From assembly GCF_044324875.1 (NCBI RefSeq), contig NZ_CP172185.1: a stretch of 64,000 nt of DNA. One strand, written 5' to 3'. The notes under the pieces were generated by a model. The model was given only the letters and a program-made list of their open reading frames with translations, had not been told where the DNA came from and ran no database searches. The stretch comes from Escherichia coli. GTDB taxonomy: Bacteria; Pseudomonadota; Gammaproteobacteria; Enterobacterales; Enterobacteriaceae. Each line of letters starts with the position of its first letter. The stretch's first letter is position 1. Positions 8,116 to 60,423 of this stretch are shown piece after piece. The position numbers and the translations under genes were made by a program.

Positions 8116-8300
8116 AGTGGCTCATTCACCGACTTATGTCAGCCCCTTCGGGACGTGCTACATAAAATTCGAATGACGCACAACAAGGTGCCTGCCGTCC
8201 AACTTCTGATATCAGCGTAGCTATATCAACCATCGGGCGAAACGTCGAGTTAGGCACCGCCTTATTCCATAACAAAGCCGGGTAATTCCCGGCTTTGTTG
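8116..8300 (+). ncRNA. glmY: GlmY small regulatory RNA
   Basis: About 185 nt from the sigma54 start (AGTGGCTCATTCACCGAC...) to an intrinsic terminator with a perfect 12-bp stem AACAAAGCCGGG/CCCGGCTTTGTT (8271-8299); sits immediately upstream of glrK as expected. Confidence 0.85.
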
Positions 8301-38931: not shown

Positions 38932-38950
38932 TAAAAAGTATTCAGAATCA

Positions 38951-39027
38951 GGCCGGAGTGTTTAACACTCCGTAAACACGGTCGTACATCCAGCCGGTAG
39001 CCTGGTTCCTTGCATTGAGTGATGTAC
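38951..39027 (+). promoter_or_regulatory. structured iscR-iscS intergenic region (stem-loops preceding the iscS ribosome-binding site)
   Basis: Hairpins CGGAGTG-ttta-ACACTCCG and GTACATC...GATGTAC; established site of RyhB-dependent differential stability of the isc mRNA (coordinates approximate). Confidence 0.45.
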
Positions 39028-39042
39028 GGAGTTTATAGAGCA

Positions 39043-40257
39043 ATGAAATTACCGATTTATCTCGACTACTCCGCAACCACGCCGGTGGACCCGCGTGTTG
39101 CCGAGAAAATGATGCAGTTTATGACGATGGACGGAACCTTTGGTAACCCGGCCTCCCGTTCTCACCGTTTCGGCTGGCAGGCTGAAGAAGCGGTTGATAT
39201 CGCCCGTAATCAGATTGCAGATCTGGTCGGCGCTGACCCGCGTGAAATCGTCTTTACCTCTGGTGCAACCGAATCTGACAACCTGGCGATCAAAGGTGCA
39301 GCCAACTTTTATCAGAAAAAAGGCAAGCACATCATCACCAGCAAAACCGAACACAAAGCGGTACTGGATACCTGCCGTCAGCTGGAGCGCGAAGGTTTCG
39401 AAGTCACCTACCTGGCACCGCAGCGTAACGGCATTATCGACCTGAAAGAACTTGAAGCAGCGATGCGTGACGACACCATCCTCGTTTCTATCATGCACGT
39501 GAATAACGAAATCGGCGTGGTGCAGGATATCGCGGCTATCGGCGAAATGTGCCGTGCTCGCGGCATTATCTATCACGTTGATGCAACCCAGAGCGTGGGC
39601 AAACTGCCTATCGACCTGAGCCAGTTGAAAGTTGACCTGATGTCATTCTCCGGTCACAAAATCTATGGCCCGAAAGGTATCGGTGCGCTGTATGTGCGTC
39701 GTAAACCGCGCGTACGCATCGAAGCGCAAATGCACGGCGGCGGTCACGAGCGCGGTATGCGTTCCGGCACTCTGCCTGTTCACCAGATCGTTGGTATGGG
39801 CGAAGCCTATCGCATCGCAAAAGAAGAGATGGCGACCGAGATGGAACGTCTGCGCGGCCTGCGTAACCGTCTGTGGAACGGCATCAAAGATATCGAAGAA
39901 GTTTACCTGAACGGTGACCTGGAACACGGTGCGCCGAACATTCTCAACGTCAGCTTCAACTACGTTGAAGGTGAGTCGCTGATTATGGCGCTGAAAGACC
40001 TCGCGGTTTCTTCAGGTTCCGCCTGTACGTCAGCAAGCCTCGAACCGTCCTACGTGCTGCGCGCGCTGGGGCTGAACGACGAGCTGGCACATAGCTCTAT
40101 CCGTTTCTCTTTAGGTCGTTTTACTACTGAAGAAGAGATCGACTACACCATCGAGTTAGTTCGTAAATCCATCGGTCGTCTGCGTGACCTTTCTCCGCTG
40201 TGGGAAATGTACAAGCAGGGCGTGGATCTGAACAGCATCGAATGGGCTCATCATTAA
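39043..40257 (+). CDS. iscS: cysteine desulfurase IscS
   Basis: 404-aa [17 protein letters not shown]...; PLP-lysine [12 protein letters not shown]; active-site SSGSACTS. Confidence 0.97.
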
Positions 40258-40284
40258 TCGGTATCGGAATCAGGAGAATTTATA

Positions 40285-40671
40285 ATGGCTTACAGCGAAA
40301 AAGTTATCGACCATTACGAGAATCCGCGTAACGTGGGTTCCTTTGACAACAACGACGAGAACGTCGGCAGCGGCATGGTGGGTGCACCGGCCTGTGGCGA
40401 CGTGATGAAGTTGCAGATTAAAGTCAACGATGAAGGTATCATTGAAGACGCGCGTTTTAAAACTTACGGCTGCGGTTCTGCTATCGCTTCCAGCTCCCTG
40501 GTCACCGAATGGGTGAAAGGGAAGTCTCTCGACGAAGCGCAGGCGATCAAAAACACCGATATTGCTGAAGAACTTGAACTGCCGCCGGTGAAAATTCACT
40601 GTTCTATTCTGGCAGAAGACGCGATCAAAGCCGCCATTGCGGACTATAAAAGCAAACGTGAAGCAAAATAA
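40285..40671 (+). CDS. iscU: Fe-S cluster scaffold IscU
   Basis: 128-aa ORF with GAPACGDVMKL, YGCGSAIASS and LPPVKIHCS motifs. Confidence 0.97.
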   Translation: MAYSEKVIDHYENPRNVGSFDNNDENVGSGMVGAPACGDVMKLQIKVNDEGIIEDARFKTYGCGSAIASSSLVTEWVKGKSLDEAQAIKNTDIAEELELPPVKIHCSILAEDAIKAAIADYKSKREAK

Positions 40672-40687
40672 GAGTTGAGGTTTGGTT

Positions 40688-41011
40688 ATGTCGATTACAC
40701 TGAGCGACAGTGCAGCAGCGCGAGTAAATACCTTTCTGGCTAACCGCGGCAAAGGGTTTGGCCTGCGTCTGGGCGTGAGAACCTCCGGATGTTCAGGTAT
40801 GGCTTATGTACTGGAATTTGTTGACGAACCGACGCCGGAAGACATCGTGTTTGAAGACAAAGGCGTGAAAGTCGTGGTCGATGGCAAAAGCCTGCAATTT
40901 CTGGACGGTACGCAGCTGGACTTCGTAAAAGAAGGCCTGAACGAAGGGTTTAAATTCACCAACCCGAACGTTAAAGATGAGTGTGGTTGCGGCGAAAGCT
41001 TCCACGTTTGA
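40688..41011 (+). CDS. iscA: A-type Fe-S carrier IscA
   Basis: 107-aa [16 protein letters not shown]... with C-terminal CGCGESF. Confidence 0.95.
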
Positions 41012-41106
41012 TGCGCATACCGATAACCCCACCGTGGTCGCCTGCGCGTGGGGTTTGTTTTACCTGATTCGCCGTTATCGCGGCGGATCGCAGCCCTGAG
41101 AATGTT

Positions 41107-41622
41107 ATGGATTACTTCACCCTCTTTGGCTTGCCTGCCCGTTATCAACTCGATACCCAGGCGCTGAGCCTGCGTTTTCAGGATCTACAACGTCAGTATC
41201 ATCCTGATAAATTTGCCAGCGGAAGCCAGGCGGAACAACTCGCCGCCGTACAGCAATCTGCAACCATTAACCAGGCCTGGCAAACGCTGCGTCATCCGTT
41301 AATGCGCGCGGAATATTTGCTTTCTTTGCACGGTTTTGATCTCGCCAGCGAGCAGCATACTGTGCGCGACACCGCGTTCCTGATGGAACAGCTGGAACTG
41401 CGCGAAGAACTGGACGAGATCGAACAGGCGAAAGATGAAGCGCGGCTGGAAAGCTTTATCAAACGTGTGAAAAAGATGTTTGATACCCGCCATCAGTTGA
41501 TGGTTGAACAGTTAGACAACGAGACGTGGGACGCGGCGGCGGATACCGTGCGTAAGCTGCGTTTTCTCGATAAACTGCGAAGCAGTGCCGAACAACTCGA
41601 AGAAAAACTGCTCGATTTTTAA
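41107..41622 (+). CDS. hscB: co-chaperone HscB (J-domain)
   Basis: 171-aa [13 protein letters not shown]...; J-domain HPD motif (QYHPDKF). Confidence 0.95.
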
Positions 41623-41638
41623 TTTCTGGAAGCTAAAC

Positions 41639-43489
41639 ATGGCCTTATTACAAATTAGTGAACCTGGTTTGAGTGCTGCGCCGCATCAGCGTCGTCTGGC
41701 GGCCGGTATTGACCTGGGCACAACCAACTCGCTGGTGGCGACAGTGCGCAGCGGTCAGGCCGAAACGTTAGCCGACCATGAAGGCCGTCACCTGCTGCCG
41801 TCTGTTGTTCACTATCAACAGCAAGGGCATTCGGTGGGTTATGACGCGCGTACTAACGCCGCGCTCGATACCGCCAACACCATTAGTTCTGTTAAACGCC
41901 TGATGGGGCGCTCGCTGGCTGATATCCAGCAACGCTATCCACATTTGCCTTATCAATTCCAGGCCAGCGAAAACGGCCTGCCGATGATTGAAACGGCGGC
42001 GGGGCTGCTGAACCCGGTGCGCGTTTCTGCGGACATCCTCAAAGCACTGGCGGCGCGGGCAACTGAAGCCCTGGCAGGCGAGCTGGATGGTGTCGTTATC
42101 ACCGTTCCGGCGTACTTTGACGATGCCCAGCGTCAGGGCACCAAAGACGCGGCGCGTCTGGCGGGCCTTCACGTCCTGCGCTTACTTAACGAACCGACCG
42201 CTGCGGCTATCGCCTACGGGCTGGATTCCGGTCAGGAAGGCGTGATCGCTGTTTATGACCTCGGCGGCGGGACGTTTGATATTTCCATTCTGCGCTTAAG
42301 TCGCGGCGTGTTTGAAGTGCTGGCGACCGGCGGTGATTCCGCGCTCGGCGGCGATGATTTCGACCATCTGCTGGCGGATTATATTCGCGAGCAGGCGGGC
42401 ATTCCTGATCGTAGCGATAACCGCGTTCAGCGTGAACTGCTGGATGCTGCCATTGCGGCCAAAATCGCGCTGAGCGATGCGGACTCCGTGACCGTTAACG
42501 TTGCGGGCTGGCAGGGCGAAATCAGCCGTGAACAATTCAACGAACTGATCGCGCCACTGGTAAAACGAACCTTACTGGCTTGTCGTCGTGCGCTGAAAGA
42601 CGCTGGCGTAGAAGCTGATGAAGTGCTGGAAGTGGTGATGGTTGGCGGTTCTACCCGCGTGCCGCTGGTGCGTGAACGGGTGGGCGAATTTTTCGGTCGT
42701 CCACCGCTGACTTCTATCGACCCGGATAAAGTCGTCGCTATTGGCGCGGCGATTCAGGCGGATATTCTGGTGGGTAACAAGCCGGACAGCGAAATGCTGT
42801 TGCTGGATGTGATCCCGCTGTCGCTGGGCCTCGAGACCATGGGCGGCCTGGTGGAGAAAGTGATCCCGCGTAATACCACGATTCCGGTGGCGCGCGCCCA
42901 GGATTTCACCACCTTTAAAGATGGTCAGACGGCAATGTCTATCCATGTGATGCAGGGTGAACGTGAACTGGTGCAGGACTGCCGCTCGCTGGCGCGTTTT
43001 GCACTGCGTGGTATCCCGGCGCTACCGGCTGGCGGCGCGCATATTCGCGTAACGTTCCAGGTCGATGCCGACGGTCTTTTGAGCGTGACGGCGATGGAGA
43101 AATCCACCGGCGTTGAGGCGTCTATTCAGGTCAAACCGTCTTACGGTCTGACCGATAGCGAAATCGCTTCGATGATCAAAGACTCAATGAGCTATGCCGA
43201 GCAGGACGTAAAAGCCCGTATGCTGGCAGAACAAAAAGTAGAAGCGGCGCGTGTGCTGGAAAGTCTGCACGGCGCGCTGGCTGCTGATGCCGCGCTGTTA
43301 AGCACCGCAGAGCGTCAGGTCATTGACGATGCTGCCGCTCACCTGAGTGAAGTGGCGCAGGGCGATGATGTTGACGCTATCGAACAAGCGATTAAAAACG
43401 TAGACAAACAAACCCAGGATTTCGCCGCTCGCCGCATGGACCAGTCGGTTCGTCGTGCGCTGAAAGGCCATTCCGTGGACGAGGTTTAA
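41639..43489 (+). CDS. hscA: Hsp70-type chaperone HscA
   Basis: 616-aa [13 protein letters not shown]... with Hsp70 motifs GIDLGTTNS and DLGGGTFD. Confidence 0.95.
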
Positions 43490-43490
43490 T

Positions 43491-43826
43491 ATGCCAAAGA
43501 TTGTTATTTTGCCTCATCAGGATCTCTGCCCTGATGGCGCTGTTCTGGAAGCGAATAGTGGTGAAACCATTCTCGACGTTGCGCTGCGTAACGGTATCGA
43601 GATTGAACACGCCTGTGAAAAATCCTGTGCTTGCACCACCTGCCACTGCATCGTTCGCGAAGGTTTTGACTCGCTGCCGGAAAGCTCAGAGCAGGAAGAC
43701 GACATGCTGGACAAAGCCTGGGGACTGGAGCCGGAAAGCCGTTTAAGCTGCCAGGCGCGCGTTACCGACGAAGATTTAGTGGTCGAAATCCCGCGTTACA
43801 CTATCAACCATGCGCGTGAGCATTAA
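43491..43826 (+). CDS. fdx: [2Fe-2S] ferredoxin (adrenodoxin type)
   Basis: 111-aa [24 protein letters not shown]...; cysteine ligands CxxxxxCxxC...C. Confidence 0.95.
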
Positions 43827-43837
43827 CAGAGGTTAGT

Positions 43838-44038
43838 ATGGGACTTAAGTGGACCGATAGCCGCGAAATTGGCGAAGCACTGTACGATGCGTATCCCGAT
43901 CTTGATCCGAAAACGGTTCGATTCACCGATATGCATCAGTGGATTTGCGATCTGGAAGATTTCGACGACGACCCGCAGGCATCCAACGAGAAAATCCTCG
44001 AAGCGATTTTGTTAGTCTGGCTGGACGAAGCCGAATAA
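43838..44038 (+). CDS. iscX: Fe-S assembly protein IscX
   Basis: 66-aa acidic [27 protein letters not shown]... Confidence 0.9.
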
Positions 44039-44074
44039 TTTCCGCGTCATGCTTCACGCCGCAGATGCGTTGGC

Positions 44075-44200
44075 TGCGCTCGTTCACCCCAGTCACATAG
44101 TTATCTATGCTCCTGGGGCTTCACTCACTTGCCGCGTGATTCGGCCTTTTGGCCTCACCCCTCCGGGGCCAGCGCAAGCGCTGTTCAAAACGCAATGCGT
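44075..44200. repeat. ERIC/IRU repeat element
   Basis: CGCTCGTTCACCCCAGTCAC...ATGCTCCTGGGGCTTCAC match both ERIC primer-site cores (reverse complement of AAGTAAGTGACTGGGGTGAGCG, and ATGTAAGCTCCTGGGGATTCAC); imperfect palindrome in the iscX-pepB spacer. Confidence 0.7.
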
Positions 44201-44282
44201 TTTGTCCTGCAACGCGAATCATTTAGCGGAAAAATCCTGGGGCTGCCAACTGGCGGCCCTTTTACAAAGAAGGATAACTAAA

Positions 44283-45566
44283 ATGACAGAAGCGATGAAG
44301 ATTACCCTCTCTACCCAACCTGCCGACGCGCGCTGGGGAGAAAAAGCGACTTACAGCATTAATAATGATGGCATTACCCTGCATTTGAACGGGGCAGACG
44401 ATCTGGGGCTGATCCAGCGTGCGGCGCGCAAGATTGACGGTCTGGGCATCAAGCATGTTCAGTTAAGCGGTGAAGACTGGGATGCGGATCGCTGCTGGGC
44501 ATTCTGGCAAGGTTACAAAGCCCCGAAAGGCACACGTAAAGTGGAGTGGCCGGATCTGGACGATGCCCAACGGCAGGAACTGGATAACCGCCTGATGATC
44601 ATCGACTGGGTGCGTGACACCATCAACGCACCGGCAGAAGAATTGGGACCATCGCAACTGGCACAGCGTGCTGTTGATCTGATCAGCAACGTCGCGGGCG
44701 ATCGTGTGACTTATCGGATCACCAAAGGTGAAGATCTGCGTGATCAAGGTTATATGGGGCTGCACACGGTCGGACGCGGTTCAGAACGTTCTCCGGTATT
44801 GCTGGCGCTGGATTACAACCCAACTGGCGATAAAGAAGCGCCAGTGTACGCGTGCCTGGTTGGTAAAGGCATCACCTTTGATTCCGGCGGCTACAGCATC
44901 AAACAGACCGCATTTATGGACTCGATGAAGTCGGACATGGGCGGCGCGGCAACGGTTACCGGGGCGCTGGCGTTTGCCATTACGCGCGGACTGAACAAGC
45001 GCGTGAAGCTGTTCCTCTGCTGTGCGGATAACCTGATCAGCGGCAACGCGTTCAAACTGGGCGATATTATTACCTATCGCAACGGTAAAAAAGTTGAAGT
45101 GATGAACACTGATGCGGAAGGGCGTCTGGTGCTGGCCGATGGCCTGATTGATGCCAGTGCGCAGAAACCGGAACTGATCATTGATGCGGCGACCCTCACC
45201 GGGGCGGCGAAAACTGCGCTGGGTAATGATTATCACGCGCTGTTCAGTTTTGACGATGCGCTTGCCGGTCGCTTGCTGGCGAGTGCCGCGCAGGAGAATG
45301 AACCGTTCTGGCGTCTGCCGCTGGCGGAGTTCCACCGCAGCCAGCTGCCGTCTAACTTTGCCGAACTGAACAATACCGGAAGCGCGGCGTACCCGGCAGG
45401 CGCGAGCACGGCGGCGGGCTTCCTGTCGCACTTTGTTGAGAACTATCAGCAAGGCTGGCTGCATATCGACTGCTCGGCGACTTACCGTAAAGCGCCGGTT
45501 GAACAGTGGTCTGCGGGTGCTACGGGACTTGGTGTGCGCACGATTGCTAATCTGTTAACGGCGTAA
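44283..45566 (+). CDS. pepB: aminopeptidase B (M17 leucyl-aminopeptidase family)
   Basis: 427-aa ORF from [15 protein letters not shown]...; M17 motif [12 protein letters not shown]. Confidence 0.93.
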
Positions 45567-45573
45567 ACTAATA

Positions 45574-45673
45574 TGCCGGATGCGGCGTAAACGCCATATC
45601 CGGCCTACAAAGTATTGCAAATTCAACAAATTGTGAATCCCTTGTAGGCCTGATAAGTATGGCGCATCAGGCA
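45574..45673. repeat. BIME: two inverted REP palindromes
   Basis: TGCCGGATGCGGCGTAAACGCCATATCCGGCCTAC and GTAGGCCTGATAAGTATGGCGCATCAGGCAC between pepB and sseB. Confidence 0.85.
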
Positions 45674-45708
45674 CTTGTGCCCCGAACGTTGAATGAATTG
45701 TGGTTCTT

Positions 45709-46485
45709 ATGTCCGAAACAAAAAATGAACTTGAAGACCTGCTGGAAAAAGCAGCAACCGAACCGGCGCACCGCCCGGCCTTTTTCCGTACTCTACTGGA
45801 ATCCACCGTCTGGGTGCCGGGTACGGCGGCGCAGGGCGAGGCTGTGGTTGAAGATAGCGCGCTTGATTTACAGCACTGGGAAAAAGAAGACGGCACCAGC
45901 GTCATTCCTTTTTTTACCTCGTTAGAAGCACTTCAACAGGCGGTTGAAGACGAACAGGCATTTGTCGTAATGCCCGTTCGCACATTGTTTGAGATGACCC
46001 TTGGCGAAACGCTCTTCCTTAATGCCAAACTGCCAACCGGTAAAGAATTTATGCCGCGTGAAATCAGTTTGTTGATTGGTGAAGAAGGAAATCCGCTGAG
46101 CAGCCAGGAAGTACTGGAGGGCGGTGAATCGCTGATATTATCGGAAGTCGCAGAGCCACCAGCACAAATGATTGATTCTCTCACCACCTTATTTAAAACT
46201 ATTAAGCCGGTGAAGCGTGCTTTTATTTGTTCAATTAAAGAGAACGAAGAGTCACAGCCTAATTTACTTATTGGCATTGAAGCCGATGGTGATATCGAAG
46301 AAATTATTCAGGCGGCGGGAAGTGTAGCGACCGATACATTACCTGGCGATGAACCCATCGATATTTGTCAGGTGAAAAAAGGGGAAAAAGGAATTAGCCA
46401 CTTTATTACCGAACATATTGCGCCATTCTATGAACGTCGCTGGGGTGGTTTTTTGCGTGACTTTAAACAGCATCGGATAATCTAA
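45709..46485 (+). CDS. sseB: enhanced serine sensitivity protein SseB
   Basis: 258-aa ORF MSETKNELEDLLEKAATEPAHRPAFF...; synteny between pepB and sseA. Confidence 0.85.
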   Translation: MSETKNELEDLLEKAATEPAHRPAFFRTLLESTVWVPGTAAQGEAVVEDSALDLQHWEKEDGTSVIPFFTSLEALQQAVEDEQAFVVMPVRTLFEMTLGETLFLNAKLPTGKEFMPREISLLIGEEGNPLSSQEVLEGGESLILSEVAEPPAQMIDSLTTLFKTIKPVKRAFICSIKENEESQPNLLIGIEADGDIEEIIQAAGSVATDTLPGDEPIDICQVKKGEKGISHFITEHIAPFYERRWGGFLRDFKQHRII

Positions 46486-46802
46486 AATATGCCGCCCCAA
46501 AGGGCGGCATTCGGGCTTACTTGCTGCTCTGAAGTTTGTTAACCACCAGTAAATTGTTGCCGGAGAGACTCCGGTTATTATTTACCTCGGTTAACAGCGC
46601 ACCAGAAACAATAAGTACGATACAAAAGCACCGTATCTTCATTGTGCGGTCCATGCGAAGACCGCATCACGACAGCACCACTGGCGATATTGCCGCGATA
46701 GCAAGCGCTGAGACGCGCTTGCTCTAACGGTCGCGGAACATCCTTTCCTTAAGCCAGCGCCCGCTTGCGAGACGGCGGAAAGGGCCGCAGTGGATAATAC
46801 AC
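46486..46802 (-). ncRNA. ryfA: RyfA-like RNA copy 1 (putative small-protein toxin mRNA, TimP/RyfA type); 5' end approximate
   Basis: Minus-strand unit between a promoter-like TTGTCA-16-TATTGT (about 46837-46810) and terminator hairpin ATGCCGCCCTTTGGGGCGGCAT plus U-tract (46510-46486); about 310 nt; leader has SD-sequestering CCTTTCC/GGAAAGG stem. Confidence 0.6.
46517..46654 (-). CDS. hypothetical 45-aa small protein with hydrophobic N-terminal segment (candidate type I toxin)
   Basis: ORF MDRTMKIRCFCIVLIVSGALLTEVNNNRSLSGNNLLVVNKLQSSK verified codon by codon; identical in copy 2 except the last residues; no strong Shine-Dalgarno, so start codon uncertain. Confidence 0.35.
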   Translation of the reverse strand: MDRTMKIRCFCIVLIVSGALLTEVNNNRSLSGNNLLVVNKLQSSK

Positions 46803-46865
46803 TAACAGAACAATAATAACTCTCTTTTGCTTGACAAAAAGAGGGTTACTGGCGAGTATTGTCTC

Positions 46866-46962
46866 CGCTGAGACGCGCTTGCATTACTACGGTAATACAA
46901 CCTGCTGGAAAGGCCGCGAACCGGACCAGCAACAAAAAACCGCCTGATTTTGGCGGTTTTTT
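46866..46962 (+). ncRNA. putative sRNA 1, divergent from RyfA-like copy 1 (candidate antitoxin RNA, TimR-like)
   Basis: TTGACA (46831-46836) -17 bp- GAGTAT promoter; about 97 nt to intrinsic terminator AAAAAACCGCC-tgatttt-GGCGGTTTTTT (46935-46962); 5' 17 nt identical to the plus strand at 46706-46722. Confidence 0.5.
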
Positions 46963-47079
46963 GTTGTTTAAAGAAAGTGAATTTACATGTTCAAGTAATA
47001 TCTTTTATTGGTTAGTATTTTTAATATTAAGCGAAAATTGTTTATATTTGTCTGAATTCGGACTAATAAGCTAGGTTAT

Positions 47080-47163
47080 TTTATTACCGAACATATTGCG
47101 CCATTCTATGAACGTCGCTGGGGTGGTTTTTTGCGTGACTTTAAACAGAATGGGATAATTTAA
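47080..47163 (+). pseudogene. duplicated 3' fragment of sseB (about 27 C-terminal codons plus stop), non-functional remnant at the repeat junction
   Basis: TTTATTACCGAACATATTGCGCCATTCTATGAACGTCGCTGGGGTGGTTTTTTGCGTGACTTTAAACAG repeated from 46402-46470, followed by a diverged tail and TAA at 47161-47163. Confidence 0.8.
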
Positions 47164-47480
47164 AACATGCCGCCCCAAAGGGCGGCATTCGGGCTTACCT
47201 GCTGTTCTGAAGGTTGTTAACCACCAGTAAATTGTTGCCGGAGAGACTCCGGTTATTATTTACCTCGGTTAACAGCGCACCAGAAACAATAAGTACGATA
47301 CAAAAGCACCGTATCTTCATTGTGCGGTCCATGCGAAGACCGCATCACGACAGCACCACTGGCGATATTGCCGCGATAGCAAGCGCTGTGAAACACCTGC
47401 ATTTACGGCCATGGAACATCCTTTCCTTAAGCCAGCGCCCGTTTGCGAGACGGCGGAAAGGGCCGGTGTCGATAATACGC
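47164..47480 (-). ncRNA. ryfA: RyfA-like RNA copy 2; 5' end approximate
   Basis: Same architecture as copy 1, shifted by 678 bp; terminator hairpin at 47167-47188; leader diverged from copy 1. Confidence 0.6.
47195..47332 (-). CDS. hypothetical 45-aa small protein, paralogue of the 46517-46654 ORF
   Basis: Same ORF as copy 1 with three C-terminal substitutions (K to N, S to N, K to R); frame and length preserved. Confidence 0.35.
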   Translation of the reverse strand: MDRTMKIRCFCIVLIVSGALLTEVNNNRSLSGNNLLVVNNLQNSR

Positions 47481-47543
47481 TAAATAAACAATGATTACTG
47501 TCTTTCGCTTGACAAAAAGAGAGTTACTGGCGAGTATTGCTTT

Positions 47544-47644
47544 GCTGTGAAGCACCTGCGTTGCTCATGCAACACAAGCCAACCTGCTGGAAAGGCCGCG
47601 AACCAGACCAGCAATAAAAAACCGCCAAATTCGGCGGTTTTTTA
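47544..47644 (+). ncRNA. putative sRNA 2, divergent from RyfA-like copy 2 (candidate cognate antitoxin RNA)
   Basis: TTGACA (47509-47514) -17 bp- GAGTAT promoter; terminator AAAAAACCGCC-aaattc-GGCGGTTTTTT (47616-47645) also serves convergent sseA; 5' region matches the plus strand at 47384-47403 with G-U wobbles. Confidence 0.5.
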
Positions 47645-47659
47645 TTGCCTGTAAAAAGC

Positions 47660-48505
47660 TTATTTCAATGGCTCAACCGGTAAATCTGCCCGTGCGCCCC
47701 ATTCACTCCATGCGCCGTCGTACAGTTTCACGTTTGGCACATCAAGTGTCGCGAGTGCTAACAAAACCACGGCTGCCGTTACACCAGAGCCGCAGCTGAC
47801 GATAATCGGTTTGTCATAGCTGACGCCGCGACCAAAAAATATCGCATCCAGTTCATCGGTCGTTTTTAGTTCGCCTTCGCGCACCAGTTCCGTCCACGGA
47901 ACGTTCAATGCACCGGGAATATGTCCGCGACGTAAACCTGGGCGAGGTTCATCAACTTCTGCGTTAAAACGTGCAGCCGGGCGGGCATCAATAATTTGCG
48001 CCGTATTTTCATGGCTTGCCAATAACACATCGGTGACTTTCACCACGGCTTCAGGATTAAACGTGGCGTTAAACTCTCCTTCCGGCAGCTCTACTGCACC
48101 TTCTTCTAACAGCAGATCATCGCGCTGCCAGCCTGCAAGTCCACCCCCCAGAATCGACACTTTCTCTACACCAAAGGTGCGCAGCATCCACCATGCTCGT
48201 GGGGCTGAGAAAAGATTACCTTCGTCATAGACAATCAGGTGCTTATCCTGGTTAACGCCTAACTCACGCATCGCCACGGCGAACGTTTTCGGGCGCGGCA
48301 GCATGTGCGGAAGCGGGGAAGTGTGATCAGAAAGCGCTTCGATATCAAAAAACACTGCGCCGGGAATATGTCCATTCAGATACTCCTGAGCAACGTTACG
48401 ATCTTCCTGTCCAGGCGACGCCATGCGGGCATCGATAATCTGAATTTCCGGGTCATCAATATGTTCGGCGAGCCAGTCGGCTCCTACAAACCATGTCGTG
48501 GACAT
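47660..48505 (-). CDS. sseA: 3-mercaptopyruvate sulfurtransferase (tandem rhodanese)
   Basis: 281-aa ORF from MSTTWFVGADWLAEHIDDPEIQIIDARM; catalytic Cys motif SCGSGVTA; the six-frame ORF extends upstream to 48664. Confidence 0.9.
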   Translation of the reverse strand: MSTTWFVGADWLAEHIDDPEIQIIDARMASPGQEDRNVAQEYLNGHIPGAVFFDIEALSDHTSPLPHMLPRPKTFAVAMRELGVNQDKHLIVYDEGNLFSAPRAWWMLRTFGVEKVSILGGGLAGWQRDDLLLEEGAVELPEGEFNATFNPEAVVKVTDVLLASHENTAQIIDARPAARFNAEVDEPRPGLRRGHIPGALNVPWTELVREGELKTTDELDAIFFGRGVSYDKPIIVSCGSGVTAAVVLLALATLDVPNVKLYDGAWSEWGARADLPVEPLK

Positions 48506-48711
48506 AGGCATCTCCATTTTTGCCGGGGTTAGGCTAAATTGTCGGATGTTTAGTGAAATGCGACAAGCAAAAGAGGCTGATTTGGCTGTCTGAGCCACAA
48601 TTCTCACTAAAATTCGGATTGTATGGGCGTGATACTGAATTACATAACGTAAATTCTCACGCATAATAATTATTCGACGTTGCTAACGGGCCATTGTGGC
48701 AGGGATGAAAA

Positions 48712-59194: not shown

Positions 59195-60313
59195 ATGCAT
59201 AACCAGGCTCCAATTCAACGTAGAAAATCAACACGTATTTACGTTGGGAATGTGCCGATTGGCGATGGTGCTCCCATCGCCGTACAGTCCATGACCAATA
59301 CGCGTACGACAGACGTCGAAGCAACGGTCAATCAAATCAAGGCGTTGGAACGTGTTGGCGCTGATATCGTCCGTGTCTCAGTACCGACGATGGACGCGGC
59401 AGAAGCGTTCAAACTCATCAAACAGCAGGTTAACGTGCCGCTGGTGGCTGACATCCACTTCGACTATCGCATTGCGCTGAAAGTAGCGGAATACGGCGTC
59501 GATTGTCTGCGTATTAACCCTGGCAATATCGGTAATGAAGAGCGTATTCGCATGGTGGTTGACTGTGCGCGCGATAAAAACATTCCGATCCGTATTGGCG
59601 TTAACGCCGGATCGCTGGAAAAAGATCTGCAAGAAAAGTATGGCGAACCGACGCCGCAGGCGTTGCTGGAATCCGCCATGCGTCATGTTGATCATCTCGA
59701 TCGCTTGAACTTCGAACAGTTCAAAGTCAGCGTGAAAGCGTCAGACGTCTTCCTCGCTGTTGAGTCTTATCGTTTGCTGGCAAAACAGATCGATCAGCCG
59801 CTGCATCTGGGGATCACCGAAGCGGGTGGTGCGCGCAGCGGGGCGGTTAAATCCGCCATTGGTTTAGGTCTGCTGCTGTCTGAAGGCATTGGCGACACGC
59901 TGCGCGTATCGCTGGCGGCCGATCCGGTTGAAGAGATCAAAGTCGGTTTCGATATTTTGAAATCGCTGCGTATCCGTTCGCGCGGGATCAACTTCATCGC
60001 CTGTCCAACCTGTTCGCGTCAGGAGTTTGATGTTATCGGTACGGTTAACGCGCTGGAGCAACGCCTGGAAGATATCATCACTCCGATGGACGTTTCGATT
60101 ATCGGCTGTGTGGTGAATGGCCCAGGTGAGGCGCTGGTTTCTACACTCGGCGTCACCGGCGGTAACAAGAAAAGCGGCCTCTATGAAGATGGCGTGCGCA
60201 AAGACCGTCTGGACAACAACGATATGATCGACCAGCTGGAAGCGCGCATTCGTGCGAAAGCCAGTCAGCTGGACGAAGCGCGTCGAATTGACGTTCAGCA
60301 GGTTGAAAAATAA
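59195..60313 (+). CDS. ispG: 4-hydroxy-3-methylbut-2-enyl diphosphate synthase
   Basis: 372-aa [31 protein letters not shown]...; [4Fe-4S] cysteines CPTCSR...C. Confidence 0.95.
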
Positions 60314-60423
60314 TAACGTGATGGGAAGCGCCTCGCTTCCCGTGTATGATTGAACCCGCATGGCTCCCGAAACATTGAGGGAAGCGTTGAGGGTTCATTT
60401 TTATATTCAGAAAGAGAATAAAC

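Follow-up and report, generated by a model that had tools for sequence, protein, structure and literature searches.

Two tandem timP-timR type I toxin-antitoxin modules very probably lie between sseB and sseA in an Escherichia coli chromosome

A 64,000-nucleotide stretch of E. coli DNA (the window; NCBI RefSeq assembly GCF_044324875.1, contig NZ_CP172185.1) carries two ryfA-like copies, each with a short open reading frame (ORF) on the minus strand. What do these ORFs encode, and how might their translation be controlled? Our analysis indicates that two timP-timR type I toxin-antitoxin modules very probably stand in tandem in the window, with sseB on one side and sseA on the other. Four features of this DNA carry the argument: membership of the ORFs and RNAs in known families, the position of the ORF in the mRNA, the RNA elements with their complementarity, and cognate versus non-cognate pairing between toxin mRNA and antisense RNA.

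Both copies sit between sseB (45700-46485, plus strand) and sseA (47660-48664, minus strand), the conserved chromosomal position of timPR, and gene order around timP is the same in annotated E. coli records. They belong to a 678-bp tandem repeat whose unit boundary falls at a duplicated sseB 3′ end, which the annotation of two-copy E. coli genomes lists as a partial SseB pseudogene:

46484-46786, minus strand: timP-1 mRNA (ryfA), 303 nt, SL2 loop CGCGT ('RyfA1-like' allele)
47162-47464, minus strand: timP-2 mRNA (ryfA), 303 nt, SL2 loop TGTTT ('RyfA2' allele)
47080-47163, plus strand: duplicated sseB 3′ end, 81/84 identical to 46402-46485, repeat-unit boundary

Each mRNA matches Rfam RF00126 (ryfA) at full length over model positions 1-296, with 313.6 bits for copy 1 and 319.2 bits for copy 2 against a gathering score of 80. 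We numbered the mRNAs so that the annotated AUG is +145, which puts landmarks known from Salmonella (C57/C58/G59, the pair G125-C138, and G131 in the loop of SL4) at the same numbers. On this scale the two copies are identical at 287 of 303 positions, and 12 of the 16 differing positions cluster within +53 to +76. We considered whether an Rfam 'IS128' match marks a separate gene with a bearing on the ORF, and rejected this.

In the ORF listing, a 45-codon frame occurs in both copies, as the sequence-only reading had reported: 46517-46654 (minus strand; product MDRTMKIRCFCIVLIVSGALLTEVNNNRSLSGNNLLVVNKLQSSK) and 47195-47332 (minus strand; product ending ...NNLQNSR). Nucleotide comparison also bears out its statement that the three substitutions between them (+252 A/C, +260 G/A and +266 A/G, giving K to N, S to N and K to R) are all non-synonymous and confined to the extreme C-terminus, within the final six codons. 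The ORF is common to both copies because of the duplication, and its recurrence is hence no independent evidence. It is more than a chance frame because it matches a protein family (E = 9e-24) and because the frame is conserved in Citrobacter. Against the NCBIfam model NF040796 ('toxic_TimP', curated cut-off 45 bits), TimP-1 scored 83.4 bits and TimP-2 83.7 bits (E about 1e-23), with residues 5-44 of both 45-aa ORFs covering model positions 1-40. The coding sequences recorded in RefSeq are shorter than the ORFs, at 126 nt:

46517-46642, minus strand: TimP-1 CDS per NCBI, 41 aa, MKIRCFCIVLIVSGALLTEVNNNRSLSGNNLLVVNKLQSSK; the 45-codon ORF reaches 46654
47195-47320, minus strand: TimP-2 CDS, 41 aa, ending ...NNLQNSR; the 45-codon ORF reaches 47332

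Exact matches to the 41-aa TimP-1 sequence are recorded as TimP on at least 1000 contigs, and TimP-2 likewise has an exact match recorded as TimP and is identical to WP_004974226.1, the sseA-proximal TimP of E. coli HCP5S3_I2. timP was found in 5425 of 5426 complete E. coli genomes; RefSeq names it in practically all E. coli genomes, with two entries in two-copy strains. A HMMER search of the 41-aa peptide against 1.84 billion representatives returned only five proteins, all Escherichia-type and none from Salmonella; small proteins are evidently under-called among the representatives searched. Judged by their sequence, both ORFs encode TimP, a known and routinely annotated type I toxin, and this identity is not new.

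The peptides themselves have the traits of the family: a basic N-terminus, a Sec-signal-like hydrophobic segment and a poorly conserved C-terminal half. Basic residues K2 and R4 are followed by 14 uncharged residues (CFCIVLIVSGALLT), with a Kyte-Doolittle maximum of 2.9 across residues 7-17; the charged start noticed earlier thus stands, and the hydrophobic stretch once put at 16 residues shortens to an uninterrupted uncharged run of 14. The N-terminal 16 residues are conserved relative to Citrobacter, and the C-terminal half is unalignable. The proposal that the ORF encodes a type I small membrane toxin, an orthologue of Salmonella TimP, is supported by the NF040796 score above cut-off, the position at +145, the RefSeq name and a cognate TimR.

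MFE folds of both mRNAs contain SL1, SL2, SL3 and SL4, the architecture of RF00126, and are far more stable than shuffles (timP-1, -133.5 kcal/mol, z = -6.3; timP-2, z = -6.4). The following elements could be placed:

46742-46784, minus strand: SL1 of timP-1, lower stem CCUUUCC/GGAAAGG; mini-ORF AUG at 46739-46741
47420-47462, minus strand: SL1 of timP-2; mini-ORF AUG at 47417-47419
46753-46759, minus strand: site 1 of timP-1, CGCUGGC, +28 to +34, in upper SL1
46679-46685, minus strand: site 3 of timP-1, GCCAGUG, +102 to +108, pseudoknot partner of site 1
47431-47437 and 47357-47363, minus strand: pseudoknot sites 1 and 3 of timP-2
46727-46732, minus strand: site 2 of timP-1, GACCGU, +55 to +60
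47405-47410, minus strand: site 2 of timP-2, GGCCGU
46646-46665, minus strand: SL4 of timP-1, GCGGUC-UUCGCAUG-GACCGC, six G-C/A-U pairs
47324-47343, minus strand: SL4 of timP-2, same as in copy 1

SL4, which is invariant across the Escherichia and Citrobacter homologues examined, sequesters a Shine-Dalgarno (SD) sequence, UGGA (+134 to +137), and holds a further AUG, at +133 to +135 (46652-46654 in copy 1), in its loop. Sites 1 and 3 can form a helix of 7 bp (six Watson-Crick pairs and one G-U); the Salmonella mutations M2/M2′ affect its pairs G33-C103 and C34-G102. Site 2 is complementary to the 5′ arm of SL4 (site 4, +122 to +127) in a 6-bp helix that would free the SD, and its C57-G125 pair is the one tested as S2*/S4* in Salmonella. 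The SL4 stem and the site 1-3 and site 2-4 complementarities occur in both copies at the same nucleotide numbers as in Salmonella, which suggests that the switch function established for these pairings there extends to the mRNAs of the window.

Divergently from each timP, and upstream of it, lies a predicted sRNA whose 5′ end is complementary to SL2 and which runs into an intrinsic terminator, as in timPR:

46866-46962, plus strand: TimR-1 antisense sRNA (RyfB1-like), ~97 nt; 5′ end inferred, +/- 3 nt
47544-47643, plus strand: TimR-2 antisense sRNA (RyfB2-like), ~100 nt; 5′ end inferred
46706-46725, minus strand: TimR target in SL2 of timP-1, +62 to +81, homologous to the mapped Salmonella SL2 site
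47384-47403, minus strand: TimR target in SL2 of timP-2, +62 to +81

The TimR promoters were placed by Salmonella homology and pattern: TTGACA-17 nt-GAGTAT at 46831-46859 for TimR-1, whose terminator ends at 46962, and a TTGACA-17-GAGTAT-type promoter at 47509-47537 for TimR-2, whose terminator ends at 47643. A consensus promoter scan of the window flagged neither the timP nor the TimR promoters, the TimR -10 GAGTAT having 3/6 matches. The layout and conserved body of TimR-1 match Salmonella TimR (oligonucleotides EHO-1419/1420). The TimR-1 seed (46866-46882) pairs with timP-1 +65 to +81 at 17/17 Watson-Crick positions, and the TimR-2 seed (47543-47562) pairs with timP-2 +62 to +81 in a 20-bp helix of 17 Watson-Crick and three G-U pairs. 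By ungapped helix counting, used in place of duplexfold, which on long stretches gave extended, uninformative structures, the cognate TimR-timP helices measure 17 and 20 bp and the non-cognate ones 11 and 9 bp. Across Escherichia and Citrobacter there are four allele classes, in which the seed co-varies with the SL2 sequence beside it. Since the SL2 and TimR sequences differ between modules, each antitoxin should control mainly its own toxin. In Salmonella, TimR represses toxin translation and relieves toxicity; in S. dysenteriae, RNA-seq showed the divergent transcripts, and RyfB1 reduced RyfA1 RNA and not RyfA2 (PMC5333039).

As a separate observation, the TimR adjoining timP is non-cognate in about one-third of complete E. 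coli genomes, among them K-12, and the cognate one lies ~370 nt farther away. Such a non-cognate adjacent TimR could matter when timR deletion experiments are interpreted.

How each module would work can be proposed by homology with Salmonella experiments, from which the translation start, membrane targeting, toxicity and switch mechanism are taken. Each ~303-nt ryfA/timP mRNA would encode TimP, of ~41 aa, with a Lys/Arg N-terminus and a 14-residue signal-peptide-like hydrophobic segment, translated most likely from the +145 AUG. The weak SD (UGGA) would be locked in the very stable SL4, and the primary transcript would therefore be mostly inactive, a form presumably held by an alternative pairing of sites 1 and 2. 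For activation, upper SL1 would pair with the SL3 loop in a pseudoknot (sites 1-3), and the single-stranded site 2 would invade the 5′ arm of SL4 (sites 2-4), the mRNA being translatable only when the site 1-3 pseudoknot is present too. TimR, ~100 nt long, would start just upstream of each timP promoter, run in the opposite direction, pair through its 5′ end with the cognate SL2 loop, disrupt the pseudoknot and prevent initiation. Salmonella TimP inserts in the inner membrane and makes the membrane leaky on over-production, and it stays toxic with a C-terminal 6xHis tag; by homology, Escherichia and Shigella TimP are probably toxic as well.

The alternative that survives best, though we consider it improbable, is that RyfA of Escherichia and Shigella acts as a base-pairing regulatory RNA, with TimR as its sponge or partner, and that the ORF is vestigial and has no physiological effect. 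Several experiments point this way. In UPEC CFT073, ryfA alleles with a destroyed ORF still complemented all delta-ryfA phenotypes (stress, fimbrial and macrophage); over-production of RyfA1 in S. dysenteriae lowered ompC mRNA and blocked cell-to-cell spread at normal growth (PMC5333039); and a 2026 APEC paper found little effect of timR loss. Sequence variation fits as well. Among 10 Escherichia alleles pN/pS is ~1, a value that widens the earlier remark that the inter-copy substitutions give no evidence of purifying selection. With only nine summed synonymous differences in codons 2-17, this ratio has little power and speaks neither for nor against coding. Nucleotide diversity (pi) is 0.003 in the nearly invariant SL3-SL4 and 0.023-0.052 in the ORF, so that RNA elements are the most conserved and protein-level constraint is therefore undetectable within the genus Escherichia.

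Beyond the genus, Escherichia, Citrobacter and Salmonella all keep the frame, start and stop although the C-terminal half varies freely, which argues against a vestigial ORF. Citrobacter keeps the frame through an unalignable C-terminal half with indels of 6 and 3 nt, and the timP stop always lies 8 nt 5′ of the terminator stem. Essentially every E. coli genome carries an intact, annotated ORF, and both copies keep every translation-switch element plus a cognate antitoxin, features that a non-coding RNA would have no use for. In E. coli, the host of the FASTBAC-Seq screen, Salmonella timP is toxic, and the small-protein test that came out negative in Shigella was of a 30-aa ORF, which would fit an ORF in another frame from +117/+120 rather than TimP. 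Counting against the timPR explanation, some lineages (E. albertii, E. marmotae and one C. amalonaticus genome) have lost the signals for expression. The cross-genus sample is small: a contig pattern search with the SL4 stem fixed and both AUGs free recovered five species (two Escherichia, three Citrobacter), the pattern being too strict, as it missed Salmonella and even the E. coli representative. For ribosome profiling of ryfA translation in E. coli, a literature search turned up no evidence other than the Salmonella studies. The timPR explanation leaves room for a dual-function RNA, and the regulatory RNA is a rival only if the ORF is irrelevant.

Within the timPR explanation, the start codon needs care. 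The sequence-only reading had the toxin begin at the +133 AUG, and the Escherichia/Shigella product would then be a 45-aa protein (MDRTMKIR...), instead of or beside the 41-aa form; we regard this as a still slimmer prospect. The +133 AUG is in frame, is invariant in 14/14 Escherichia and Citrobacter sequences that keep the region, and sits in the SL4 loop, where it is formally single-stranded. In Bessaiah et al. 2021 the ORF of CFT073 is drawn with 45 aa, from +135 to +270, and 45-aa forms are deposited as hypothetical proteins, that of copy 1 from S. dysenteriae 155-74. But no SD-like sequence lies 5-10 nt upstream of this AUG, a position taken by the GC-rich 5′ arm of SL4, and the codon overlaps the SD. 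In Salmonella, whose start-region sequence we took from published oligonucleotides (EHO-1663, EHO-1331), +133 to +135 reads AAG, within an AAGGA SD, and the AUG is at +145. The +133 AUG thus replaces the AAG of the Salmonella SD, and its conservation can be put down to SD and loop constraints.

The second AUG, at +145, is the likely start. Both the NCBI annotation and the NCBIfam model begin at this Met, the model aligning from residue 5 of the longer form; a Salmonella +145 AUG-to-AAG mutant gave neither protein nor toxicity; and a FASTBAC-Seq screen of Salmonella timP was enriched for start and stop loss-of-function mutations. On these grounds the +133 start is judged unlikely and a 41-aa product probable, and the extension would in any case add Asp-Arg-Thr before a signal-like segment that is itself unaltered. 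The earlier observation that neither ATG has a strong Shine-Dalgarno is right as far as strength goes, with the correction that a weak SD-like GGA lies 7 nt 5′ of the second AUG; the E. coli UGGA is weaker than the Salmonella AAGGA.

The mini-ORFs described earlier behind a strong SD in a CCTTTCC/GGAAAGG stem are indeed present. Their AUG at +46 lies immediately 3′ of GGAAAGG, which pairs with CCUUUCC, and they read MFRDR* (five codons) in copy 1 and 24 aa (MFHGRKCRCFTALAIAAISPVVLS) in copy 2. The SD-like AAGGAAAGG forms the 3′ side of the lower stem of SL1; in Salmonella this stem is needed for translation, as a structural scaffold for the pseudoknot (compensatory mutants M7/M7′). A hok/mok-like scheme, in which toxin translation is driven from AAGGAAAGG and the +46 mini-ORF by coupling or ribosome stand-by, has in its favour the stem-sequestered GGAAAGG followed by AUG in both copies and the upstream ORF coupling known for other type I toxins, but we rejected it as highly implausible: the +46 AUG is missing in Salmonella (+48 is A) and in three Citrobacter sequences, the copies differ (5 vs 24 codons) with the copy 1 mini-ORF stopping at least 80 nt before the toxin start, no conserved upstream ORF reaches the toxin start and is needed for translation as in Hok/Mok, and the Salmonella upstream ORF at +53 is dispensable, its start mutation being without effect. 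Structure-gated translation, as first suspected, thus remains the reading, with the gate moved from GGAAAGG and the mini-ORF to SL4, the pseudoknot and the site 2-4 helix.

Among known systems the closest is timPR of Salmonella enterica (Andresen et al. 2020, PMC7667032; Eleftheraki & Holmqvist 2024, PMC11228461; Eleftheraki et al. 2026, PMC13000454). The window shares with it RF00126, NF040796, the ORF at +145, a divergent TimR directed at SL2, SL1-SL4, the numbering of the pseudoknot sites and site 2-4 helix, and the flanking sseA and sseB. Salmonella TimP has 38 aa, whereas the predicted peptides here have 41 aa and a different C-terminal half; the UGGA that replaces AAGGA creates the additional in-frame AUG at +133; and in place of one module there are two in tandem, with no STM2534-like gene between sseA and timP. 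S. dysenteriae likewise has two tandem ~303-nt ryfA genes, about 95% identical, with a divergent ~100-nt transcript (RyfB1, RyfB2) before each and ~17 nt of complementarity. The two genes differ mainly in a 5-nt 'variable region', for which copy 1 of the window has one of the RyfA1-like versions (CGCGT) and copy 2 the RyfA2 version (TGTTT). Fris et al. 2017 (PMC5333039) treated these RNAs as non-coding ompC regulators and tested only a 30-aa ORF.

More distantly, ZorO-OrzO (E. coli O157:H7), TisB/IstR-1 and ShoB/OhsC also pair a small hydrophobic inner-membrane toxin with an antitoxin; systems of the ZorO-OrzO type share the divergent, adjacent, non-overlapping antitoxin sRNA with ~18 nt of pairing in the toxin 5′ UTR, and zor-orz is likewise a tandem duplicate with pair specificity. 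Unlike timP, which is activated by refolding alone, mRNAs of the ZorO-OrzO type need 5′ processing or a stand-by site, and there is no sequence similarity. Hok/Sok also sequesters the toxin SD in mRNA structure and controls translation by an antisense RNA, but hok depends on 3′ processing and on translational coupling to mok, its upstream ORF, whereas the timP upstream ORF is dispensable in Salmonella and the +46 mini-ORF is non-conserved.

Much of this is already known: TimP/TimR since 2020, the switch dissected in 2024 and 2026, and the Shigella tandem siblings since 2017. A further idea, which we hold tentatively and think unlikely, is that the two tandem modules form orthogonal toxin-antitoxin pairs that differ in function and in translational set-point. 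In site 2, copy 1 carries A56, for which we predict a weaker site 1-2 lock of the inactive form (-2.0 vs -5.9 kcal/mol) together with a stronger SD-freeing site 2-4 helix (-8.2 vs -7.6 kcal/mol). The module order is opposite in strain FDAARGOS_1285. Separately, some loci would fit recombination between modules: shuffled in FDAARGOS_1285, mismatched in K-12-type genomes, and killed in E. marmotae and C. amalonaticus.

If the modules do differ in this way, the copy 1 mRNA would stay longer in the translatable, TimR-sensitive form than the copy 2 or Salmonella mRNA, and recombination between the direct repeats formed by TimR seeds and SL2 targets would shuffle, mismatch or kill modules. The locus also shows that a 41-aa toxin gene is recoverable from raw sequence, in a family where annotation overlooked timP for about two decades.

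The ORF proposed in the sequence-only reading as a type I toxin akin to the Salmonella RyfA product TimP is a correct rediscovery: it carries the RefSeq name and verbatim TimP records, and the window holds two known sibling modules of the known, annotated toxin gene timP. The ORF listing places the same ORF in both ryfA copies, as proposed:

45700-46485, plus strand, sseB, one flank of the ryfA region
46517-46654, minus strand, 45-codon ORF of copy 1, encoding MDRTMKIRCFCIVLIVSGALLTEVNNNRSLSGNNLLVVNKLQSSK
47195-47332, minus strand, 45-codon ORF of copy 2, ending NNLQNSR
47660-48664, minus strand, sseA, the other flank

Around each ORF lies a full-length match to the Rfam ryfA family RF00126 (313.6 and 319.2 bits; gathering score 80). 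By megablast, the timP locus was found in 5,425 of 5,426 complete E. coli genomes, and RefSeq annotates timP beneath the match, twice in two-copy strains, together with a partial SseB pseudogene. About 176 extra matching places beyond one per genome suggest that roughly 3% of these genomes hold more than one copy. Best identity to the same set (n=5,426) is 99.3% for the flank 40000-46400 and 98.8% for the locus 46400-47700. A protein search returned 63 clusters, nearly all of 41 aa and named TimP. Each of the window's 41-aa sequences has exact matches named TimP on at least 999 contigs; all records of the 45-aa forms are 'hypothetical protein' entries, from Shigella dysenteriae 155-74 and one STEC strain.

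Salmonella ryfA encodes a 38-aa inner-membrane TimP that is toxic when over-expressed, causing propidium-iodide uptake and cpxP induction; the divergent sRNA TimR represses it by way of an 18-nt complementary stretch in the 5'UTR (Andresen et al. 2020, PMC7667032). In S. dysenteriae, ryfA1 and ryfA2 lie in tandem and are 95% identical, with a CGCGT-like or TGTTT variable region; each has a divergent ~100-nt RyfB, and RyfB1 acts on RyfA1 only (Fris et al. 2017, PMC5333039). The window copies resemble these siblings, forming a tandem pair with CGCGT in the stem-loop 2 (SL2) variable region of copy 1 and TGTTT in that of copy 2. The same 45-aa ORF has been drawn in UPEC CFT073 (Bessaiah et al. 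2021).

Both copies, with a duplicate of the final 84 nt of sseB, lie in a 678-bp tandem repeat. Numbered from the transcription start, their 303-nt RNAs differ at 16 positions; the differences listed are 12 at +53..+76, one at +23, one in the terminator tail, and three in the last six ORF codons. The copy-copy alignment bears out that these three are C-terminal and all non-synonymous, and that the comparison carries no selection signal. The hydrophobic stretch, first put at 16 residues, spans 14.

We numbered the mRNA with the annotated AUG as +145. The window RNAs then match the Salmonella landmarks C57/C58/G59, the G125-C138 pair and G131 in the SL4 loop, and set G33/C34 opposite G102/C103, as in Salmonella. 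RefSeq gives timP a 126-nt CDS (41 aa); the alignment to the NCBIfam TimP model begins at residue 5 of the 45-codon ORF. The AUG of the longer ORF falls at +133..+135, inside the SL4 loop (UUCGCAUG), and extends into the 3' arm. The published Salmonella oligonucleotides, a +130 forward primer (CGCAAGGACCGCAACATGA) and start-codon mutagenesis primers (CGGTCTTCGCAAGGACCGCAA and GGACCGCAACAAGAAGG), read AAG at +133, which in Salmonella belongs to an AAGGA Shine-Dalgarno (SD) 7 nt upstream of the +145 AUG. Escherichia and Citrobacter have AUGGA where Salmonella has AAGGA. The +133 AUG is invariant in both genera, which would suit a 45-aa product starting there, but this invariance is equally expected from SD and loop constraints, and no SD-like sequence precedes +133 in either copy; we consider such a product very improbable. 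Given the RefSeq and NCBIfam start, the Salmonella AAG at +133, the missing SD, and a Salmonella +145 AUG-to-AAG mutant that makes no protein and shows no toxicity, we take the +145 AUG as the probable start in the window copies, yielding 41 aa.

In Salmonella, timP translation is structure-gated. SL4 traps the SD, the upstream ORF is dispensable, and the lower SL1 stem is required as structure. An essential 7-bp pseudoknot joins site 1 (upper SL1) to site 3 (SL3 loop), and the single-stranded 6-nt site 2 invades site 4 (SL4 5' arm) to free the SD. Pairing of sites 1 and 2 holds the inactive form, and TimR binds the active mRNA at SL2 and disrupts the pseudoknot. All of these switch complementarities occur in both window copies at identical positions, and both RNAs fold far more stably than shuffled controls (z = -6.3 and -6.4). 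Gating, as first proposed for these copies, has its elements in place, but the GGAAAGG stem is very improbable as the gate. The mini-ORFs (MFRDR* in copy 1, 24 aa in copy 2) and the CCUUUCC/GGAAAGG stem are present as described. Neither Salmonella, which has A at +48, nor Citrobacter has the associated +46 AUG that was considered as a gate.

Site 2 (+55..+60) reads GACCGU in copy 1 (46727-46732) and GGCCGU, like Salmonella, in copy 2 (47405-47410). The predicted site 1-2 lock is -2.0 versus -5.9 kcal/mol (copy 1 versus copy 2) and the predicted site 2-4 helix -8.2 versus -7.6 kcal/mol. By prediction, the inactive lock is weakened in copy 1 by A56, where copy 2 and Salmonella have G56.

On the plus strand upstream of each timP promoter, a TTGACA-17 nt-GAGTAT promoter precedes sequence complementary to the adjacent SL2 region. 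Each TimR has a promoter, an SL2-complementary seed, a conserved body and a terminator:

about 46866-46962, plus strand, TimR-1
about 47544-47643, plus strand, TimR-2

Measured as the longest ungapped helix, cognate pairing reaches 17 bp, Watson-Crick throughout (TimR-1 with timP-1), and 20 bp with 3 G-U (TimR-2 with timP-2); non-cognate pairing gives 11 bp (TimR-1 with timP-2) and 9 bp (TimR-2 with timP-1). Across ten loci the seed changes in step with the SL2 allele beside it (CGCGT, TGTTT, CACCC and Citrobacter forms). Nucleotide diversity of the mRNA within Escherichia is far higher in the TimR target (pi = 0.267) than in any other part, and close to nil in SL3-SL4 (pi = 0.003).

A comparison of 10 Escherichia alleles gives a pN/pS of ~0.96 on a very small number of synonymous changes. 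As the copy-copy comparison is also uninformative, coding evidence rests on cross-genus comparison. Citrobacter TimP conserves MKIR[CY][FV]CIVL.VSG.L and is wholly divergent beyond it, its frame kept through 6- and 3-nt indels and its stop 8 nt ahead of the terminator stem; a published oligonucleotide gives the Salmonella N-terminus as MKVRCFCVVLLVSG. By homology to Salmonella, TimP of Escherichia and Shigella is predicted to be translated and is a putative toxin. Over-production of RyfA1 did not slow growth of S. dysenteriae, and a 30-aa candidate fused to gfp was negative in a Shigella small-protein test (Fris et al. 2017, PMC5333039). Each copy also holds an ORF in another frame (29/30 codons, V/MMRSSHGPHNEDTVLLYRTYCFWCAVNRGK, start +117/+120):

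46578-46670, minus strand, other-frame ORF
47256-47348, minus strand, other-frame ORF

Since this ORF (VMRSSHGPHNED...) fits the size of the Shigella candidate and TimP does not, the gfp test probably did not address TimP. In UPEC, ORF-destroying ryfA alleles still complement delta-ryfA phenotypes. Several lineages have lost expression signals, which counts against a required function of TimP. We regard ryfA/timP as likely a dual-function RNA.

Rfam IS128 (RF00125) matches full-length at 46920-47130, minus strand (210.6 bits). Because the match spans the duplicated sseB tail, the AT-rich spacer found only in unit 1 and the TimR-1 terminator antisense, this 'RNA' family looks like a by-product of timP/timR locus architecture and not an independent gene. 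Four other elements are ordinary for this part of the E. coli/Shigella chromosome:

8116-8263, plus strand, GlmY (147 bits)
38932-39041, plus strand, iscRS stability element (132 bits)
45561-45605, minus strand, REP-like partial naRNA4 match between pepB and sseB
60313-60404, plus strand, SroE (117 bits)

The locus is rearranged in other genomes. In E. marmotae (L008 1380-1470) and C. amalonaticus AUH_CA_2023_1 (L007 8060-8150), independent deletions with junctions inside the TimR-seed/SL2-target direct repeat have eliminated both promoters along with timP from +1 to about +64. Both ORFs are still annotated TimP; as 5' truncations abolish translation in Salmonella, these mRNAs should be untranslatable. 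In E. albertii (L009, CP043254.1, around 1560-1600), a 26-nt deletion (+128..+153) takes out the SL4 3' arm, the SD and both AUGs, fusing the remaining frame to the +53 upstream ORF as a predicted 63-aa protein (P0031); eight further places are similar. E. coli FDAARGOS_1285 (L012 1200-2600 against window 46380-47760) has two modules in reverse order, the CGCGT pair adjoining sseA and the TGTTT pair adjoining sseB, each timP with its cognate TimR, which implies module shuffling and not one fixed duplication.

The K-12-type layout, read from E. coli BW25113 (L010 95-602 against window 46787-47650), starts at sseA with a type-2 TimR, followed by a timP promoter with the initial 15 nt of its mRNA; a 357-bp deletion comes next, and beyond it lie the sseB tail, the AT-rich spacer, a type-1 TimR (seed CGCTGAGACGCGCTTGC) and a timP with type-2 SL2 (TGTTT). 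The deletion corresponds to window 47094-47449, the remnant being a deleted second timP, and its junction occurs in about 1,774 of 5,426 complete E. coli genomes. The TimR adjoining timP is therefore non-cognate, and the cognate one (20-bp helix) lies ~370 nt farther toward sseA. Hence, deletion experiments on the 'adjacent timR' could be confounded in K-12-type strains.
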